DNA of 64,000 bases from Minisyncoccia bacterium (lineage in GTDB: Bacteria > Patescibacteriota > Minisyncoccia > UBA6257 > JAAZHW01): NCBI GenBank assembly GCA_041550235.1, contig JBFEPE010000001.1, positions 8,003 through 72,002 of the forward strand, written 5' to 3'. Positions 4,189-59,823 of the stretch are shown one piece after another. A program made the position numbers and the translations under genes. Numbering within the stretch: position 1 is the stretch's first letter; each line of letters opens with the position of its first letter. The notes under the pieces were generated by a model. That model was not told the origin of the DNA, did not search any database, and was given only the letters and a program-made list of their open reading frames with translations.

Positions 4189-5598
4189 CTATAATTTCTC
4201 TATATCTTGCCCCTCACTCGTATCCCTCACATCATATCCTAATTTTTTTAACTCATTTCGCAAGTCATCAGAAGTTTTCCAGTCTTGACTATCTCGAGCA
4301 ATCTTTCTTTTTTCTAACAAATCAGAAACCTCATCAGGAATATCAAAATCTTTTCTCGCCTCAGAGTTTCTCAAAATATCCAAACCCAAAATATTATCCC
4401 AATCAGAAATCAATCTTATTTTTTCTGACGAAGAAATATTTTCTGACTTTAACATATTCCAAGCAGTCGCCAATGCTTGAGGAGTATTCAAATCATCTGA
4501 TAAAGCAGAAATAAATTTATCTTGCCATTTTTTAGAATTTTCTAAATTATTATTCTCATCATCATCACTCTTTTCTAAAATCTCACTCACTAAATCATAT
4601 AAATTATTAAGAGAATTATCTGCTCCTCGCATCGTCTCCCAACTAAAATTCAAACCCTTTCTGTAATGAGAATTCATTGTCAAATATCTAAAAGATAGGG
4701 GATGATATCCCTTTTCCTTTATATCATCAATCAAAATCATTGAAGCAGGGTCGCTCTTTGCTATTTTCTTTCCCTCATAACTCACCCATTCATTATGGAG
4801 CCAAAAATTAGATGTCTGCTCTCCAAATGCAGCAGTTGCTTGAGCAACTTCATTTGTATGATGGACTGGAATATGCTCTTTTCCGCCAGTATGAATATCA
4901 AATTTTTTACCCAAATATTTTACTGACATTGCAGTGCATTCAATGTGCCATCCCGGGAAGCCAACACCCCAAGGACTTTCCCATTTCAAAATATGTTGTG
5001 GCTGATTTGTTATCCAAAGAAGGAAGTCCCATGGTTGTTTTTTTTCTTCATCAACATCAACTCTTTTGCCGGCTTCTTGCTCTTTCAAATTTAAATTAGC
5101 AAACTTTTCATATTCTTTAAACTTTGAGGTATCAAAAACTAACCCTGTCTTTGTTTGATAAGTAAATCCTTTTTCTTCTATTTTTTTAATTAAATCTATC
5201 TGCTCTTTAATATGCTCGGTTGCTTTTGATAATATATCTGGCTTTTTAATATTTAATTCGTCCAATGATTTTAAGAATTGCTTTGTATATTTTTCTGCTA
5301 TTTCCATCACTGATAATCCTTCTCTTTTTGCTCCCTTTTCCATTTTGTCTTCACCTGTATCTTCATCAGAGGTGAGATGCCCCACATCTGTGATATTCAT
5401 TACCCACTTCACTTCATAATTTTGGCTCTTTAAGAATCTAACTAATATATCCCAAACGATATAAGCGAACATATGCCCGATATGTTGGTTCCAATATACT
5501 GTTGGGCCACAAGAATATATTCCCACCTTGTTTTTTTCAATGGGTATAAATTCTTGCTTTTTTCTTGTGAGGGTGTTGTATAATTTAATCTCTTTCAT
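4189..5598 (-). CDS. cysS: Cysteinyl-tRNA synthetase
   Basis: CGPTVYWNQHIGHM contains the HIGH motif. Class I fold. 469 aa. C-terminal DALR-like helical domain. Confidence 0.9.
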   Translation of the reverse strand: MKEIKLYNTLTRKKQEFIPIEKNKVGIYSCGPTVYWNQHIGHMFAYIVWDILVRFLKSQNYEVKWVMNITDVGHLTSDEDTGEDKMEKGAKREGLSVMEIAEKYTKQFLKSLDELNIKKPDILSKATEHIKEQIDLIKKIEEKGFTYQTKTGLVFDTSKFKEYEKFANLNLKEQEAGKRVDVDEEKKQPWDFLLWITNQPQHILKWESPWGVGFPGWHIECTAMSVKYLGKKFDIHTGGKEHIPVHHTNEVAQATAAFGEQTSNFWLHNEWVSYEGKKIAKSDPASMILIDDIKEKGYHPLSFRYLTMNSHYRKGLNFSWETMRGADNSLNNLYDLVSEILEKSDDDENNNLENSKKWQDKFISALSDDLNTPQALATAWNMLKSENISSSEKIRLISDWDNILGLDILRNSEARKDFDIPDEVSDLLEKRKIARDSQDWKTSDDLRNELKKLGYDVRDTSEGQDIEKL

Positions 5599-14764: not shown

Positions 14765-15345
14765 GAAGACAAGATGGATATTGGCAGGCGAGCGAGGAGC
14801 TTAAAAATTTGATATAAGGGTATAAAATTGTATTTTTAATTTTCTAAATTGTTATGCGGAATAATTTAGAAAAAAGATGAGATATCGATTCCAAGCATCA
14901 CTTTTGTTATTTTTTAGAGGGGCGATTTATTAATTCCCTCCCCCGCCGTAGGCGGGGGAGGGAATGGAGTTAGAAAATAATAAGAGTGATGTTTGGATAA
15001 TAATATTTCTCATCGGGGCAGATAATTAAGGGTGTGTGGTGGATGCCTTGACTTGTAAAGGCGAAGAAGGACGTGGCGTGGCTGCGATAAGCTTCGGGGA
15101 GTTGCTTAGCAAACTTTGATCCGGAGATTTCCGAATGGGGAAACCCATCTCGAATTTAAACTCGAGATATCCCATCTTATCTTAAAGATGGGGAGCTAAC
15201 CCGCTGAAGTGAAACATCTCAGTAAGCGGAGGAAAAGAAAAAAAGATGAATTATTTGTTCCACTTGTTTTAAATATTAGAACAAGTAGAACATCTAATTC
15301 ATTCATTCCCTAAGTAGCGGCGAGCGAAAGGGGAAGAGCCCAAAC

Positions 15346-15448
15346 CCAGCCCCAGTTTTTATCTAGTGACGAAATTTGTATTTGATTAATTTATTAAGAA
15401 AAAGATTATTTATTCAAATAAAAGTGGCTGGTTAAAAACTGGGGCTGG
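15346..15448 (+). mobile_element. 23S intervening sequence copy a (hairpin element with CCAGCCCCAGTTTT / AAAACTGGGGCTGG termini)
   Basis: About 103-nt AT-rich insert bounded by a perfect 14-nt terminal inverted repeat. About 95% identical to copy e at 17801-17901. Confidence 0.7.
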
Positions 15449-15765
15449 GGGTTGTAAGATTATAAAATCTCGTTTAATCGTGGTAGAGAAAAAATTAAGT
15501 TTATTAATAGAATTTGCTGGGAAGCAAAACCAAAGAAGGTGATAGTCCTGTATATGAAAATTTACTTATCTCTATGTTTATTTTCTTGAGTACTTCGGAA
15601 AAGGAAAAATCCGAAGGAATCTAGCTGAACTATCAGCTAAGGCTAAATACTTTACAAGATCGATAGCGAACCAGTACCGTGAGGGAAAGGTGAAAAGCAG
15701 GCCGGTGAGGCCAGTGAAATAGTACCTGAAACCACACATTTACAAGCAATCAGAGTCTGTCATAT

Positions 15766-15945
15766 CTGTTTGTTCTTTTTAAATTTAAAATCTTTTTGAT
15801 CTACTTGCAGAAGGTCTTGAGATGCATTTTAGTTAGCAGGGGGGAGGCATTTTTTGCCTGGTTAAGACCATATTTTCCCTAGACCCAAACGGGATACCCC
15901 CATTGCTTTATTTAATAGTGTCCTTTTTAAAAAAAGGACAAACAG
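15766..15945 (+). other. 23S expansion segment / IVS bounded by ctgtttgttc...ggacaaacag
   Basis: About 180-nt insert relative to consensus 23S domain I/II. Closed by a 10-bp inverted repeat. Confidence 0.5.
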
Positions 15946-16011
15946 ATGTGGCGGATAATGGTGTGCCTATTGAAGAATGAGCCAACGAGTGTATGGATAT
16001 TGCTGATTAAC

Positions 16012-16119
16012 CCAGCCCCAGTTTTATGATAGTTTTCTAAAGTGAATAAAATTTTGATTCGCTTTGGAACGAGCGACATGTGTGTTGCTGATAAAACTTA
16101 TTGGTAAAACTGGGGCTGG
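16012..16119 (+). mobile_element. 23S intervening sequence copy b (same terminal inverted repeats, different interior)
   Basis: cccagccccagtttt...aaaactggggctgggg. Confidence 0.7.
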
Positions 16120-16660
16120 GGAAGTCAAAGGGAAACCAAGTCTTAACAGGCGACAACAATTTTTTCTTTTGGTCTTATTGGCTAAAGGAAAAATTTGTAA
16201 GTAGTATTCATACGACCCGAAGCCAGAGCGAGCTTGCCATGGCCAGGGTGAACCTCATCGAAAGATGAGGGGAGGCCCGAACCGTTAGGTCGTGCAAATC
16301 CTTCGGATGAGCTGTGGTAAGAAGTGAAAAGCTAATCGAGCCTGGTAATAGCTGGTTCTCCTCGAAATAGTTTTAGGACTAGCGTCTATTTTATCCTATT
16401 GCAGGTAGAGCTACTGGTTGAGAAGAATAGGGGGCAACCTCGGCTTCTTAGTCAAACTCCGAATGGTGATAGGTTATGAATAGGCAGTTAGACTGTGGGG
16501 GCTAAGCTCCATGGTCAAAAGGGCATGAACCCAGATCGCCATCTAAGGTCCCTAAATCTAGACTAAGTGTTGCAAAAGGTAGTGATCGACCGAAGACAGG
16601 TAGGATGTTAGCTTAGAGGTAGCTATCATTTAAAGAGTGTGTAACAACCCACTGCCATAT

Positions 16661-16762
16661 CCAGCCCCACTTTTTAACTTGAAATCTAAATTTTTCATTG
16701 GTTTATAATTGCAAAAAGTTTTAAATCGTGATTTATAGATTCTAGCTAAAAAGTGGGGCTGG
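16661..16762 (+). mobile_element. 23S intervening sequence copy c (variant termini CCAGCCCCACTTTTT / AAAAAGTGGGGCTGG)
   Basis: Inserted between gagtgtgtaacaacccactg and ggtcg of the conserved helix. Confidence 0.65.
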
Positions 16763-17377
16763 ATTGGTCGGTTGCATCGAAAATGTATCGGGGCTAAGTC
16801 TAGTACCGAAGTTGCGAATTTCCTCGCTTTTTAGTGGGGGAGTGGTAGAGGAGCATTCCATATGTGATGAAGCTGGACCCGAGAGGGCTGGTGGAGTATA
16901 TGGAAGAGAGAATGTTGGCATGAGTAACCGCAAGCAAGGTGAGAAACCTTGTCGCCGAAAACCCAAGGTTTCCGTGGCAATGTCAATCAGCCACGGGTTA
17001 GGCGGCCCTAAGGCGATGGCGAAAGCCGTAGTCGATGGACAGCTGGTTAATATTCCAGCTCTTCTAAGTAAATTCGATGGAGTGACGGGGGAAATAAGGT
17101 TGAGTGTCTTATTGGTTTGGCATTACTACCCCTAAGAAATGTTTTTTTGGTAAATCCGGAAAACTGCTTTTAATAGCGAATTTCGGGGGATGCAAAATTC
17201 CGCTTCGGCGGGAAATTTGACTGAATAGCCCTCCAAGAAAAGCTTCTAAGATATATTTATTTAGAATCCGTACTCTAAACCGACACAGGTGGGTAGGTAG
17301 AGAATACCAAGGCGAACGGGTGAGTCTTCCTTAAGGAACTCGGCAAAAAAGCGACCGTAAGTTCGCGATAAGGTCTT

Positions 17378-17683
17378 CCAGCCTCAGTTTTGTGTTATAA
17401 TTTATGATATGTGGGTTGTATATATCATACAAAATGATTTTTCAGAAGAAATCTATATCGGCATAACCAAGGATTTAAAAAGAAGAATCTCAACTCATAA
17501 TTCTAATGGCAAAAAATTTACCACTAGGAAAAATGGTAAATGGATTTTGATTTATGCTGAGGCATACAAGTCAAAAAAAGATGCTATTGTAAGAGAGATG
17601 AAATTGAAAAATCATGGAAGTGCAAAGCATAATTTAATTAAACGAATTAAAAATAGTTTAATTGAACACAAAACTGAGGCTGG
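17378..17683 (+). mobile_element. 23S intervening sequence copy d, carrying a GIY-YIG endonuclease ORF (termini CCAGCCTCAGTTTT / AAAACTGAGGCTGG)
   Basis: Same terminal inverted-repeat architecture as copies a-c and e, but 306 nt long with an internal ORF. Confidence 0.7.
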
Positions 17684-17756
17684 ACGCAGCGAAAGTATCC
17701 CTGGCGACTGTTTATCAAAAACACAGGTCCCTGCTAACTCGCAAGAGGATGTATAG
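17409..17756 (+). CDS. GIY-YIG family homing endonuclease-like ORF inside 23S IVS (C-terminal ~25 aa read through into rRNA exon)
   Basis: VYIIQN...YIGITKDLKRRISTHN matches GIY-(10)-YIG with conserved R and H/N. The ORF starts 18 nt inside the IVS. Confidence 0.6.
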   Translation: MWVVYIIQNDFSEEIYIGITKDLKRRISTHNSNGKKFTTRKNGKWILIYAEAYKSKKDAIVREMKLKNHGSAKHNLIKRIKNSLIEHKTEAGRSESIPGDCLSKTQVPANSQEDV

Positions 17757-17800
17757 GGGCTGATGCCTGACCGATGCGGGAAGGTTAAATCTGGCGGTCC

Positions 17801-17901
17801 CCAGCCCCAGTTTTTATCTAGTGACGAAAATTTGAATTTAATTAATTTATTAAAAAAGATTATTTATTCAAATAAAAGTGGCTGGTTAAAAACTGGGGCT
17901 G
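17801..17901 (+). mobile_element. 23S intervening sequence copy e (near-identical to copy a)
   Basis: ccagccccagtttttatctagtgacgaaaatttgaattta...aaaactggggctgg. Confidence 0.7.
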
Positions 17902-18379
17902 GGGGCTAACTGGATGAAGCCCCCGTCAATGTCGGCCGTAACTATAACGGTCCAAAGGTAGCGAAATTCCTTGTCGGGTAAATTCCGACGTGCATGAACG
18001 GCTTAACGACTGGGGAACTGTCTCAAGGAAGAGCCCGGTGAAAATGCAATTTCAGCGAAGATGCTGAGTACCCGCAGCAAGACGAAAAGACCCCGGGAGC
18101 TTTACTGTAGCTTGGTATTGGGCTTGAGAATGTAATGCGTAGCATAGGTGGGAGACTTTGAAGTTTCAATTTCGGTTGAGATGGAGTCGCCAGTGAAATA
18201 CCACTCTTTATATTTTTAAGTTCTAACCTTGATGGAAAAAACATTAGGGGACAGTGCCTGGTGGGCAGTTTTTCTGGGGCGGAATCCTCCCAAAGAGTAA
18301 CGGAGGAGTTTATTAAGGTCAGCTAGGTGCGGATGGAAATCGCACTGATAGTGTAAAGGCAAAAGCTGGCTTAACTGCG

Positions 18380-18480
18380 AGGCCTACAAGCCGAGCTCTA
18401 TTTCGTGTTTCGCATAAGAACTTTCAAGAAAATAATAATTCTACCCCCGCCCATACGGGCGGGGGTAGAATAGGCAAATT
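18380..18480 (+). repeat. 23S expansion containing a GC-hairpin repeat (ctacccccgcccatacgggcgggggtag)
   Basis: About 100-nt insert relative to consensus. It carries the same hairpin family seen in intergenic regions. Confidence 0.5.
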
Positions 18481-18596
18481 TAACTCTGGAATTTCTTGTG
18501 CGGAGCATGAGATAGACTTTCTAGATAATTATATTTAGATCGAGATACGAAAGTAGAACTTAGTGACCCGATGGTTCTCTGTAGAAAGGCCATCGA

Positions 18597-18628
<32 letters not shown>

Positions 18629-18766
18629 TTAGTTGCGCCCAAGAGTCCATATCGACGGCGCAGTTCGACACCTCGATGTCGGCTCATCTTATCCTGGAGG
18701 CGGAGAAGCTTCCAAGGGTTTGGCTGTTCGCCAATTAAAAAGATACGCGAGCTGGGTTCAGACCGT

Positions 18767-19122
18767 TGAGTAGTCAAGATAATTTTTGGTTTTTAGGGTG
18801 GATAGTGTGTTTCTTTCTCTTAAATTAATTAAAATTATTATTAAATTGACTTTTCAGCAGTCTGAATCCGAGGAATAAGACATCAATTTACGGCGGCATT
18901 TCGTAGTAATACGGAATGAAAAACCGACTCATATCGGTGGAATCCCAATGGGACAATACCGAGGGAAGTTGTGTATGTTAATATCATGGTGGTCATTTCG
19001 TCAAATAAAAGATAATGTTAAATGACATGCATTAACCCCGTAGAGACTATATGTCGGTCTCCTCTTTTGACAAAGAGGACGAAGATATAGTCCAATGCAC
19101 TTAGTAATAAGTGGGAAACATG
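18767..19122 (+). mobile_element. Group I intron in 23S rRNA (ORF-less, ~356 nt)
   Basis: Exon junction gaccgt|cgtaagacaggttgg reconstitutes conserved GAACGUCGUGAGACAGUUCGG. Intron follows a U and ends in G. R-like gtagagacta (19040-19049) and S-like aagatatagtcc (19082-19093). Confidence 0.6.
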
Positions 19123-19263
19123 CGTAAGACAGGTTGGTCTCTATCTGCTGTGGGCGTTGATACTTGAGGGAATTTGACCCTAGTACGAGAGGACCGGGTT
19201 GAACGAACCTCTGGTCTATCAGCTTTCCTACCAGGGGAATTGCTGAGTAGCTAAGTTCGGTTG

Positions 19264-19296
<33 letters not shown>

Positions 19297-19480
19297 CATC
19301 CCAAGATTAGGTATCCATTTCAATTTATTGGAAGTCATCCCCTCAGAGACGATGAGGTTGATAGGCTTTAGGTGTAAGGTCAGTAATGATTTTAGCCAAG
19401 AAGTACTAATCGGATGAGTTCTGCCTCGATGAGAGATATTATTTATTATTAATATCAATTTTTACCCTTATATTTTTAAG

Positions 19481-19739
19481 CATCCAGATCCGGTTTTGGT
19501 TCTTTTAAAAACCATTCAATAATGGGCAAAGGAGAGCGAGCGGGCAAATAAAACAATTTGGGCCTTTGAGGACGAAAGTGGCCAGAACCTTAAATTTATT
19601 TGAAACTCCCTGAGTAGCGGCGAGCGGAAAGGGAGAATAGCCATGGCAAGAATAAAATAAATAAAAAAGGGGAAAATAAATAGCCTCATGTCGCTCGCTC
19701 TCTGCCCACCCTTTTAAGAATCAAAACCGGATCTGGATT
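19481..19739. repeat. Nested inverted-repeat element in the 23S-5S spacer carrying a 23S-like fragment
   Basis: Outer inverted repeat catccagatccggttttg / caaaaccggatctggatt. Inner inverted repeat ggagagcgagcgggca / tgtcgctcgctctctgcc. Internal ctccctgagtagcggcgagcggaaaggga resembles the 23S segment at about 15304-15330. Confidence 0.6.
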
Positions 19740-19753
19740 ATAATGTTAAAATT

Positions 19754-20080
19754 ATGAAAACAATAAAGTTTGAGAAATCTCTTGTTCCTTTGGTATTATC
19801 AGGGGAGAAATATTCTACATGGAGAATGTTTGATGATAAGGATTTATCAGTTGGTGATGAGTTGTCGCTTGTGAATAAAGAAACAGGAGAAGAATTTGGA
19901 AAAGCGAAAATAAAGAATATAATAATAAAGAAATTTAAAGATATAGATGAGAATGATTTTAAGGGACATGAGAAATTTTCAAGTTTAGAAAATATGGAGA
20001 ATAAGTATAGAGAATATTATGGCGATAAGTTTTCTATCAACGAAGATGTAAAGATGATTGAGTTTGATTTATTAAGATGA
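19754..20080 (+). CDS. ASCH-domain protein (108 aa) located between 23S and 5S rRNA
   Basis: MKTIKFEKSLVPLVLSGEKYSTWRMFDD...GDEL matches the ASCH/PUA-like beta-barrel signature. Followed by GC hairpin caccaccgcccattcgggcggtggt. Confidence 0.55.
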   Translation: MKTIKFEKSLVPLVLSGEKYSTWRMFDDKDLSVGDELSLVNKETGEEFGKAKIKNIIIKKFKDIDENDFKGHEKFSSLENMENKYREYYGDKFSINEDVKMIEFDLLR

Positions 20081-20258
20081 TATATCACCACCGCCCATTC
20101 GGGCGGTGGTCTAAAGAACGAAGCAAAAGAACACCTCGTCCAGCCCCTAACTTGCAGAGGCTGGACGCCCCTCTATAAGAGGGGAATAATACAAAGAAAT
20201 AAATGATTTTTCTACTTATTGATTAAAAAATATATTAAAAAATTTAAAATTTTTTGTA

Positions 20259-20373
20259 TATTGGTATTTTATCTAAGTGTGACCCACCTGTTCCCATTCC
20301 GAACACAGAAGTGAAAGCATTTAGACCCGATGGTACTTGCCCGAACACGGTTGGTAGAGTAGGGTATGCCAAT
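20259..20373 (+). rRNA. rrf: 5S ribosomal RNA
   Basis: ccacctgttcccattccgaacacagaagtgaaag...ccgatggta...agagtagggtatgcc. Helix I pairs ttggtat with atgccaa. Confidence 0.8.
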
Positions 20374-20386
20374 ATTCAAAAGATTT

Positions 20387-21097
20387 TTAATTTTTTTTAT
20401 TTATTTCAATAATCTTGATATTCTTCTTTCTCCACTCATCTATTTTCTTATGATGTCCGGAGAGGAGGACTTTTGGGACTTTCCAAGCGGCCTTCTTATT
20501 TTTTGAATTTGGATAGAAAATCTCAGGTCTTGTATAAGAGGGGACACTAATCAATTTTTCGCCCATTCTCTTTGCCCTCTTGTTCTCTAATGATTCAATA
20601 TTCCCCATAAAATTTGGCAGAAGCCGAGATATGCTTTCTACTATTGCTAATGCTGGAATTTCTCCTCCGCTCAAAACAAAGTTTCCAAGTGAGATTTCTT
20701 CGTCGGCAATATATTTTGATACCCGCTCATCAATCCCTTCATAATGCCCGCAAATAAGTATTATATGGTCGTATTTTGATAATGCCCCTGCTCTTTTCTG
20801 ATTGAAAACCTTGCCTCCCAATGAAAGAAGGATGGTTCTAATCTTTGAATCCTTTTTTCTTATTTTTGATTTTATTTTTTTAACCGCTTTAAATATCGGC
20901 TCTATTTTCAAAACCATTCCCGGTCCTCCGGCAAAAGGTCTATCATCTACTTGCTTATGTTTGCCAATGGAAAAATCCCTTAGATTATAAAGGTTTATTT
21001 TTATTATTTTTTTGTCCCTTGCTTTTTTCAAGAGGGAAGCATCAAAGTATTTTTCAATTGCTTCAGGAAATATTGTGATGATATGAAATGTCGTCAT
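20387..21097 (-). CDS. trmD: tRNA (guanine37-N1)-methyltransferase
   Basis: MTTFHIITIFPE...DDRPFAGGPGMV. SPOUT knot motifs. 236 aa. Confidence 0.9.
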   Translation of the reverse strand: MTTFHIITIFPEAIEKYFDASLLKKARDKKIIKINLYNLRDFSIGKHKQVDDRPFAGGPGMVLKIEPIFKAVKKIKSKIRKKDSKIRTILLSLGGKVFNQKRAGALSKYDHIILICGHYEGIDERVSKYIADEEISLGNFVLSGGEIPALAIVESISRLLPNFMGNIESLENKRAKRMGEKLISVPSYTRPEIFYPNSKNKKAAWKVPKVLLSGHHKKIDEWRKKNIKIIEINKKN

Positions 21098-58859: not shown

Positions 58860-59060
58860 TAGGAATAGGCGAGCATGATGCTTCCTGTCACCCCTGCGAA
58901 GGCAAGGGTCTAAATAAATGGCAAGTGAGTGGTAATAGTGAGGTTGAGATTCCCGCCTTCGCGGGAATGACAAAGAAGAAATAGGAATGACAAAGGAGAG
59001 AGGATGACGCCCCCTCCTGTCGCCTCCGCGAAGGCGGAGGTCTAAAGAAAAGAAAGTAAG
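58860..59060. repeat. GC-hairpin repeat array
   Basis: cacccctgcgaaggcaagggtc, cccgccttcgcgggaatgacaa and cgcctccgcgaaggcggaggtc. Confidence 0.7.
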
Positions 59061-59539: not shown

Positions 59540-59823
59540 GGAGATTCCCGCCTTCGCGGGAATGACAAAGAAGAATGGAATAAAAATAAATCAAATAATC
59601 CCTCCCCCCGCCTTCGGCGGGGGGAGGGGATAAGGAAGAAACAGGAACGACACCTCTCCCGTGTCACCCCCGCGAAGGCGGGGGTCTAAAAACCAAGGGA
59701 AACACGATGAGAATTGTTGAGATGCCTGCCTCCGCAGGCATGACAATAAAATATTTAAATAATACCCGCCTTCGTTAAAATAGAATATCCGCCTCTGGCG
59801 GACTATGGCGGGCGAAGAAAAAT
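59540..59823. repeat. GC-hairpin repeat array ending at the rpoB start
   Basis: cccgccttcgcgggaatgacaa, ccccccgccttcggcggggggagggg, cacccccgcgaaggcgggggtc, gcctgcctccgcaggcatgac and ...ctatggcgggcgaagaaaaatATG. Confidence 0.75.

Follow-up and report, generated by a model that had tools for sequence, protein, structure and literature searches.

Here, we examine the 829-nt spacer between the 23S and 5S ribosomal RNA (rRNA) genes on contig JBFEPE010000001.1 of a Minisyncoccia bacterium, within a 64-kb stretch of DNA (the window, by which we mean the whole stretch that was analysed), where a long nested hairpin bearing a 23S-like fragment is followed by a protein-coding gene with an ASCH domain. 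On balance, and with some reservation, we read this spacer as a strain-variable patchwork of tolerated insertions and not as a purpose-built rRNA-processing module, its main hairpin coming from a family that spans the candidate phyla radiation (CPR). That family, termed family A below, is widespread in CPR stable-RNA genes, and in open-access literature text we found no description of it, either of the arms held in common or of its occurrence outside rRNA. The source organism is itself a CPR bacterium, judging from protein similarity, since the relatives of its ASCH and TrmD proteins are labelled Paceibacterota or other Patescibacteria.

The window is AT-rich, with a G+C content of ~24-42% across 2-kb windows, and contains no 16S gene. 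Rfam places the 23S gene at 15016-19428 and the 5S gene at 20259-20375. At 4.4 kb, against 2925 positions in the Rfam model, the 23S gene carries ~1.5 kb of insertions, which alignment to E. coli locates at ~232, 286, 544, 586-652, 1118, 1708-1772, 1854-1882, 2368 and 2593. When the 23S flanks are co-folded, 57 intermolecular pairs form across three helices and make up a long processing stem. The start of the spacer hairpin is 1 nt past this stem and 53 nt past the 23S 3' end. An initial annotation had described a protein gene and a nested hairpin with a 23S-like piece between 23S and 5S, and both the anatomy and the coordinates stand. It had also thought a coding gene in this position unusual; protein-coding genes in the 16S-23S or 23S-5S spacers of CPR rRNA operons have, however, already been reported by Lui et al. 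2021 (PMC8172020). The features of the spacer are as follows.

19420-19480, + strand: 3' strand of the 23S processing stem, pairing with 14999-15022 and 14800-14840 and also supported by inverted repeat I4.
19482-19504, + strand: left arm of the outer hairpin, ATCCAGATCCGGTTTTGGTTCTT, an arm of family-A type (CCAG-N5-GTTTT).
19505-19715, + strand: interior (loop cargo) of 211 nt, with a multi-branched fold closed by the inner stem.
19523-19542, + strand: left strand of the inner stem, GGGCA..GAGAGCGAGCG, pairing with 19692-19708.
19606-19635, + strand: look-alike of 23S helix 13/14, CTCCCTGAGTAGCGGCGAGCGGAAAGGGAG, with the stem intact and one extra G in the loop.
19692-19708, + strand: right strand of the inner stem, CGCTCGCTCTCTGCCC.
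19716-19738, + strand: right arm of the outer hairpin, AAGAATCAAAACCGGATCTGGAT.
19739-19744, + strand: -10 box of consensus TATAAT, 9 nt upstream of the ASCH ATG.
19754-20080, + strand: ASCH-domain gene, 108 aa, intact and keeping all invariant residues of the CPR family.
20087-20110, + strand: GC hairpin 1, ACCACCGCCCATTCGGGCGGTGGT, a perfect 10-bp stem with no U-tract after it.
20137-20167, + strand: GC hairpin 2, CGTCCAGCCCCTAACTTGCAGAGGCTGGACG, with the core CCAGCCCC / GGCTGG; its apex differs in strain variant L016 and the hairpin is absent in strain variant L002.
20168-20184, + strand: GC hairpin 3, small, CCCCTCTATAAGAGGGG.
20237-20396, + strand: 5S rRNA (20259-20375) within an extended processing stem (20237-20267 / 20366-20396).

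The modular character of the spacer is seen on comparison with L002 and L016, which are contigs from other sequencing runs than the window. The former is 95-99% identical to the window over the 23S end, ASCH and 5S segments and the latter aligns almost unchanged, the variants differing from the window by whole modules. The outer hairpin is present in all three strains; its interior in L016 is identical to that of the window, and in L002 a 22-nt loop takes the place of the 211-nt interior with its 23S-like piece. The GC-hairpin block 3' of the ASCH gene counts three hairpins in the window and two in L016, and is missing from L002. Directly before the ASCH gene, L002 (385-798) and L016 (486-899) carry a charged orphan open reading frame (ORF) of 137 aa that is absent from the window. 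Its two alleles share 34% identity within flanks that are 96-99% identical, and it has no Pfam or NCBIfam family and no other relative in a large protein collection. Because the strains differ by whole modules, the spacer is an insertion and deletion hot spot. The 211-nt interior is dispensable, as it is missing from L002 between near-identical flanks.

The variability continues past the 5S stem (~20398), where the DNA is wholly different among near-identical strains, with TrmD in the window and unrelated sequence in L002 (1343-1479). A relative with a 97% identical TrmD, L013 (3395-4789), has an SLT-domain gene beside TrmD instead of 5S, with divergence right at the 5S end, and among relatives whose TrmD is 68-97% identical this gene is not adjacent to rRNA. 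The 3' edge of the operon is a synteny breakpoint.

The origin of the outer hairpin is suggested by its resemblance to insertions in the neighbouring 23S gene. A repeat search of the operon found the ends (T/C)CCAGCCCCAGTTTT...AAAACTGGGGCTGG(G/A) at five sites within 23S. These define family A, whose arms have the form CCAG-N5-GTTTT / AAAAC-N5-CTGG (consensus CCAGCCYCASTTTT / AAAASTGRGGCTGG) and fold into a basal stem rich in GC and, after it, a U/A tract. Besides the spacer hairpin, the operon holds the following copies.

14890-14997, + strand: 23S 5' leader hairpin, TCCAAGCATCACTTTTG...AGAGTGATGTTTGGA, with a GC hairpin at its apex, scoring 21 bits with a covariance model of the family; by its sequence probably a diverged member.
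15345-15449, + strand: family-A hairpin in 23S at the helix-15 site, 10 nt past the true helix 13/14.
16011-16120, + strand: family-A hairpin in 23S, E. coli ~586-611.
16660-16763, + strand: family-A hairpin in 23S, E. coli ~1118.
17377-17684, + strand: long family-A member in 23S, E. coli ~1708-1772, whose loop bears a GIY-YIG ORF.
17800-17903, + strand: family-A hairpin in 23S, E. coli ~1854-1882, closely resembling the copy at 15345 for most of its extent.

Each of the 23S hairpins has, when folded, a perfect basal stem of 17 bp. In the 64 kb there are 10 occurrences of CCAG-N5-GTTTT against 0.49 expected, all within the arms of four of the 23S hairpins and of the spacer hairpin, and the fifth 23S hairpin is one base off the motif. 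Judged by its arms, which match the family consensus at 11/14 positions with compensatory changes between them, the outer spacer hairpin is probably a diverged family-A member. The covariance model, trained solely on four intragenic 23S copies, gave its top match outside the training set to the short spacer hairpin of L002 (34.1 bits); unrelated true members in other genomes score 29-66 bits and ~100 kb of control CPR DNA yielded zero matches. The long-form spacer hairpin of the window is missed by this model.

Beyond this operon, we scanned species-representative genomes for exact family-A arms 60-90 nt apart. The scan yielded 45 loci, almost every one with a CPR-group label and many classes being represented; viral contigs had no exact-arm hairpins. 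Interiors are unrelated across genomes and alike within a genome, the minimal form having a 3-5-nt loop, and one metagenome-assembled genome (WFTA01) holds ~11 copies on ten contigs with common arms and interior. Copies in or beside stable-RNA genes number ~14 of 49, the remainder being intergenic. The stable-RNA settings include the inside of RNase P RNA (L018 and, at 1803-2381, the gene of a close relative, L054, with two copies), 16S (L042, L047), 23S (L048, L059), the DNA after 5S (L044) and positions between or before tRNA genes (L024, L022, L028). RNase P RNA genes in CPR relatives are enlarged by such hairpins. Another locus, L020 (2426-3233), combines a short copy just 5' of the RNase P RNA match with a GIY-YIG insertion in the P15-P16 region, and owing to its insertions this RNase P RNA falls under the Rfam gathering score. 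Some sites recur, since those in RNase P RNA are common to distant lineages and the 23S helix-15 site is occupied both in the window and in Nomurabacterium L059, with compensatory arm changes. That the arms might simply be native 23S helix 15 was considered and rejected, as helix 15 of a saccharibacterial 23S (L051) is unrelated and without such arms.

The long member in 23S links the family to a nuclease gene. Its GIY-YIG ORF (17409-17756, + strand; PF01541, E = 3.7e-18) is framed by the family-A arms of 17377-17684, and homologous ORFs in L047 (in 16S), L020 (in RNase P RNA) and L019 (an unplaced locus) are likewise flanked by inverted arms. These follow the same design, a GC-rich run and then TTTT, in sequences different from family A. 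The GIY-YIG-bearing copy may, from this arrangement, be the autonomous form of family A. An extended -10-like box, TGTTATAAT, lies just before the ATG of the window's GIY-YIG ORF.

Two kinds of known element invite comparison with family A. Palindromic repeats resembling miniature transposable elements with inverted repeats (MITEs), namely the Correia elements of Neisseria, RUP, ERIC and the Rickettsia palindromic elements, are transcribed into hairpins. Like family A, they are units of ~100 nt with inverted ends that are conserved and middles that vary; they are multi-copy, mostly intergenic and tolerated in genes, and they form RNase III-type duplexes. Shared terminal inverted repeats in multiple copies are found here as well, with six copies in the operon besides the ~11 in WFTA01. 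Family A differs from them in that no target-site duplications were seen, in that no DDE transposase partner was found and the sole ORF found within the arms encodes a small GIY-YIG nuclease, and in having arms conserved over whole CPR classes, not one genus. The second comparison is with the intervening sequences (IVSs) of Salmonella, Leptospira, Coxiella and others, which RNase III removes from 23S or 16S rRNA with no religation. IVSs, of which CPR 23S is full, are extended stem-loops with long perfect duplexes at helix tips, sporadic, probably horizontally spread and sometimes ORF-bearing. With its 23-bp outer stem the spacer hairpin has the long near-perfect duplex suited to RNase III; it does not lie inside an rRNA gene at a helix tip, where its five sister copies within 23S do lie. 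What sets family A apart from IVSs is that a single arm-conserved family occupies many 23S sites as well as the leader, the spacer, RNase P RNA, tRNA spacers and intergenic DNA. 

CPR bacteria are well known for oversized rRNA genes and unusual RNase P RNAs, and about half of their rRNA insertions are unexplained, being neither introns nor ORF-bearing (PMC11270868). According to Tsurumaki et al. (PMC11270868), the GIY-YIG insertions of CPR rRNA are unlike any intron, and the short ORF-less insertions are uncharacterised and perhaps IVS-like; by our comparison, the short ones probably are IVS-like. Family A, with its invariant arms, ties together short rRNA insertions, GIY-YIG-bearing insertions, extended RNase P helices and spacer hairpins, and the arm sequence and candidate nuclease give a testable handle on how insertions spread and are tolerated. 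Such hairpins and rRNA scraps also break assemblies and the covariance-model detection of rRNA and RNase P genes. A wider proposal, plausible to us without being our expectation, is that the CCAG...GUUUU hairpins form a CPR-wide class of element specific to stable-RNA transcripts, with the GIY-YIG copies autonomous and the loops serving as preferred landing pads, and that nested insertion and rRNA capture expand the rRNA operons and RNase P RNAs of these bacteria.

The same distribution could be read differently, with family A as a functional RNA module whose helix is read by a CPR-conserved protein and kept by selection, the spacer hairpin then being a processing signal. We consider this unlikely, though it accounts well for several observations: 14-nt arms that are the same in many CPR classes around freely changing loops, the enrichment of copies in or beside stable-RNA genes, the filling of the same sites in distantly related lineages (the RNase P sites, and helix 15 of 23S in both the window and L059), and a spacer hairpin set 1 nt past the processing stem in every one of the three strains. 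It accounts less well for the majority of copies, which lie in ordinary intergenic DNA, for within-genome bursts sharing an interior, as in WFTA01, for a nuclease gene inside one copy, and for the plain, armless helix 15 of the saccharibacterial 23S. All four of these fit a spreading element.

We now turn to what the outer hairpin encloses. The whole element is 257 nt (19482-19738) with an outer inverted repeat of 23 nt that is 96% complementary, and it folds at -94.9 kcal/mol (z = -7.4 against shuffled sequences). The inverted repeats had initially been described as nested and perfect; the 17-nt outer repeat then quoted is indeed perfect, and the inner one is perfect over 11 nt, not 16 (GAGAGCGAGCG, 19532-19542 / 19692-19702), with GGGCA/UGCCC pairs prolonging the stem past a bulge. 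The resemblance to 23S domain I is genuine, if short, at 28 nt with 89% identity and ~59 nt with 78% (E = 6e-6). The 14-mer AGTAGCGGCGAGCG has exactly two sites in the window, 15313 in the true 23S and 19613 in the spacer, against 0.06 expected. The copied piece is the hairpin at E. coli ~235-262 (helix 13/14, domain I), of which the real 23S keeps an intact copy at 15307-15334. Apart from that helix itself, there are no further copies of the 211-nt interior in the window or the fetched loci. The Rfam scan recommended by the initial annotation returned zero families at E <= 10 over 19430-20258. Two other readings of the interior were rejected, namely a hammerhead-like motif (CUGAGUAG...CGAAAG), whose core misfits and on which Rfam is silent, and a decayed GIY-YIG gene, for which tblastn gave no signal. 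A 21-mer of the outer stem had zero matches among species-representative genomes, a set in which the source species is not represented; against JGI metagenomes it had a single match, to an unrelated high-GC contig (L012), which we attribute to chance.

Most likely, the 23S look-alike is cargo that was captured and has no function. Recombination between neighbouring family-A copies could have carried helix 13/14 along, because copies of the family flank that helix, lying 10 nt downstream of it in the window and upstream of the true helix in L059, which has another family-A copy there. The capture of rRNA beside family-A elements finds support in a Kaiserbacteria locus, L044 (1700-2310, minus strand), on account of a duplicated 5S fragment and a 5S-like piece. 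There, a 270-nt 23S-5S spacer contains the 5S-like piece and, past the 5S gene, a family-A hairpin sits within a duplicated partial 5S (ACGGCAGTTAA | hairpin | GATGGTAGTCTTCTGG...), a 5S 3' fragment.

The 3' part of the spacer is filled by hairpins of a different kind. The first of these (20087-20110) had been taken for the ASCH gene's own terminator, a reading that fails on the missing U-tract, the hairpin being followed by CTAAAGAACG, with no U-run, and on its resemblance to a GC-hairpin repeat type dispersed in the window; a terminator scan found no + strand intrinsic terminator in the 23S-5S spacer, whose other hairpins likewise are without U-tracts. Its apex (CCGCCCAT-N-CGGGCGG) is common to a GC hairpin in a 23S insertion (18440-18469). 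The core CCCGCC-NNN-GGCGGG, with a loop that is often GTA, has 11 copies in the window against 0.00 expected (6189, 6945, 12127, 14942, 21149, 21198, 24569, 27125, 54025, 54778 and 59607). These hairpins constitute a second repeat family, scattered between genes and present at the apex of the 23S leader hairpin, which resembles repetitive extragenic palindromic (REP) sequences and is without U-tails. As GC hairpins are nested at the apex of both the 23S leader hairpin and the 23S insertion at ~18393-18520, the filling of hairpin loops with further palindromes is a local habit, a pattern into which the 211-nt interior fits.

In the ASCH assignment, PF04266 matches the protein over its full length (residues 4-107) at 47.6 bits against a cut-off of 21.2 (E = 3e-12). 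The nearest named family, matched weakly, is the N4-acetylcytidine amidohydrolase YqfB (NF003443), to which the protein is similar in having a single ASCH domain of ~105 aa with GxK..T.R-like and GHE motifs; at 20.7 bits against a cut-off of 93, however, it is not an equivalog member. Sequence comparison with solved structures gave spurious matches only. Homologues with 56-64% identity occur in seven other CPR contexts beside genes for NUDIX, HD, dCMP deaminase, NTPase, phosphatase and DUF1653 proteins, and in the five of these scanned with Rfam no rRNA gene was found. At L011, a free-standing group I intron match (5080-5328, 71.5 bits) lies between protein genes, ~700 nt upstream of an ASCH homologue; the locus has no detected rRNA.

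Expression of the gene is likely to be independent, from a leaderless or short-leader mRNA, given the TATAAT 9 nt before its ATG and the excess of this motif across the window, where the starts of 8 of 44 ORFs (18%) are preceded at 3-15 nt by an exact TATAAT, against 1.6% at random positions. A Shine-Dalgarno-like motif precedes only 6 of the 32 long ORFs, and these figures suggest that leaderless or short-leader mRNAs are widespread in the genome. Between the window and L002 the ASCH gene has seven non-synonymous and two synonymous changes (dN/dS = 0.76). The L002 protein is without the near-invariant Lys19, and in L016 an 8-bp duplication shifts the frame, leaving a 58-aa product. The suggestion that the gene is co-transcribed rRNA-processing cargo is therefore not sustained, in view of its homologues' nucleotide house-cleaning contexts, its own TATAAT, the dN/dS value and the damage in two siblings. 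By sequence, it fits neutral cargo and not an rRNA-processing factor. The arrangement recalls the spacer-gene operons of other CPR bacteria (PMC8172020) in placing a same-strand protein gene between 23S and 5S with no 16S nearby; those genes often encode homing endonucleases, whereas here it is an ASCH gene, relocated from a nucleotide-metabolism neighbourhood and apparently decaying.

It is very doubtful that 23S, hairpin, ASCH and 5S make up one functional transcription unit, in which the ASCH protein would be an rRNA maturation factor and the look-alike would recruit or titrate either it or a 23S-binding protein. The look-alike does retain its loop sequence and a closed stem and shares the strand of the ASCH gene, ~120 nt upstream of it, no canonical terminator separates 23S from 5S, and the window's ASCH gene is intact with all family-invariant residues. 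In this it is akin to the rRNA mimics in the leaders of ribosomal-protein and rRNA-methylase genes (the L20 leader, the 23S-methyl motif), where a same-strand gene has a short rRNA-hairpin copy upstream of it. In such leaders, however, the mimic is conserved with its gene, whereas L002 keeps the ASCH gene without the mimic-bearing interior and conservation of the copy is limited to two identical strains; nor is ASCH known to bind that rRNA site. The damage to the gene in two of three strains, its dN/dS, its own -10 box, the weak match to a nucleoside amidohydrolase as its closest named family and the relatives that are never beside rRNA in the contexts examined also speak against such a unit. 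As a caution, location inside an rRNA operon does not by itself mean that a gene or an rRNA look-alike has a part in ribosome biogenesis.

The patchwork that we favour could have arisen as follows. A diverged family-A hairpin (CCAG-N5-GUUUU ... AAAAC-N5-CUGG), of a family that would colonise stable-RNA genes and their spacers, came to sit right after the base of the 23S processing stem. Hairpin loops would be sites of further DNA insertion, and that of the window's spacer hairpin may have taken up 211 nt including the presumably non-functional helix 13/14 copy, probably as a side effect of element-associated recombination involving the rRNA gene. An ASCH gene of nucleotide house-cleaning type would have been relocated to the spacer, to be expressed from its own -10 box and to evolve without evident constraint, and GC hairpins resembling the dispersed repeat type would have filled the remainder. 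In the rRNA precursor the long duplexes would be cleavage sites of RNase III type, such that the insertions are cut out or cut off and the maturation of 23S and 5S is undisturbed. Harmlessness through cleavage may be the reason that insertions pile up in stable-RNA transcripts.

Several observations weigh against this account. The proposed RNase III-type cleavage is predicted only from the length of the duplexes. The arms of the spacer hairpin are off the consensus at 3 of 14 positions each, and their homology to the family is argued from common ends and a rough E of ~1e-5. Target-site duplications are absent at the window copies and at the 49 exact-arm copies, where the flanks rather extend the inverted repeat, and GIY-YIG proteins are not known as transposases. 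The conservation of exact 14-nt arms across CPR classes is stronger than neutral junk predicts, and a sequence-specific protein partner is possible. The helix 13/14 copy folds perfectly and is identical in two strains, such that it might act as a decoy. Lastly, the dN/dS of the ASCH gene depends on just nine substitutions, and frameshifts in short-read contigs may be assembly errors.

The weakest explanation, that the spacer content is a chimeric assembly or binning join, has in its favour that rRNA regions from metagenomes are often mis-assembled and that the flanks past 5S differ between strains, and it can be set aside as vanishingly improbable, given that four independent assemblies from different runs (the NCBI contig and three Logan assemblies, SRR29257546, SRR29257342 and SRR15144438) have the same order of 23S end, hairpin, ASCH and 5S at every junction from the 23S 3' end to 5S, which disposes of the chimerism that the initial annotation had named as one part of its refutation.

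Other features of the window were noted in passing. A group I intron (18874-19114, 57 bits) lies inside a 356-nt insertion at ~E. coli 23S position 2593, and a minus-strand ORF of 93 aa (19001-19282) has no Pfam match. The insertion at ~E. coli 544 (15761-15946, 186 nt), in helix 25, the classical IVS site, has 25-nt inverted arms of its own that finish in a T-run. A LOOT RNA match (RF03000; 29418-29539, 86.6 bits) is found ~9 kb downstream of the rRNA genes. A repeat of ~110 nt occurs twice in the window (58881-58992 and 59662-59746) and once in the close relative L013 (2267-2375), with 77-86% identity.

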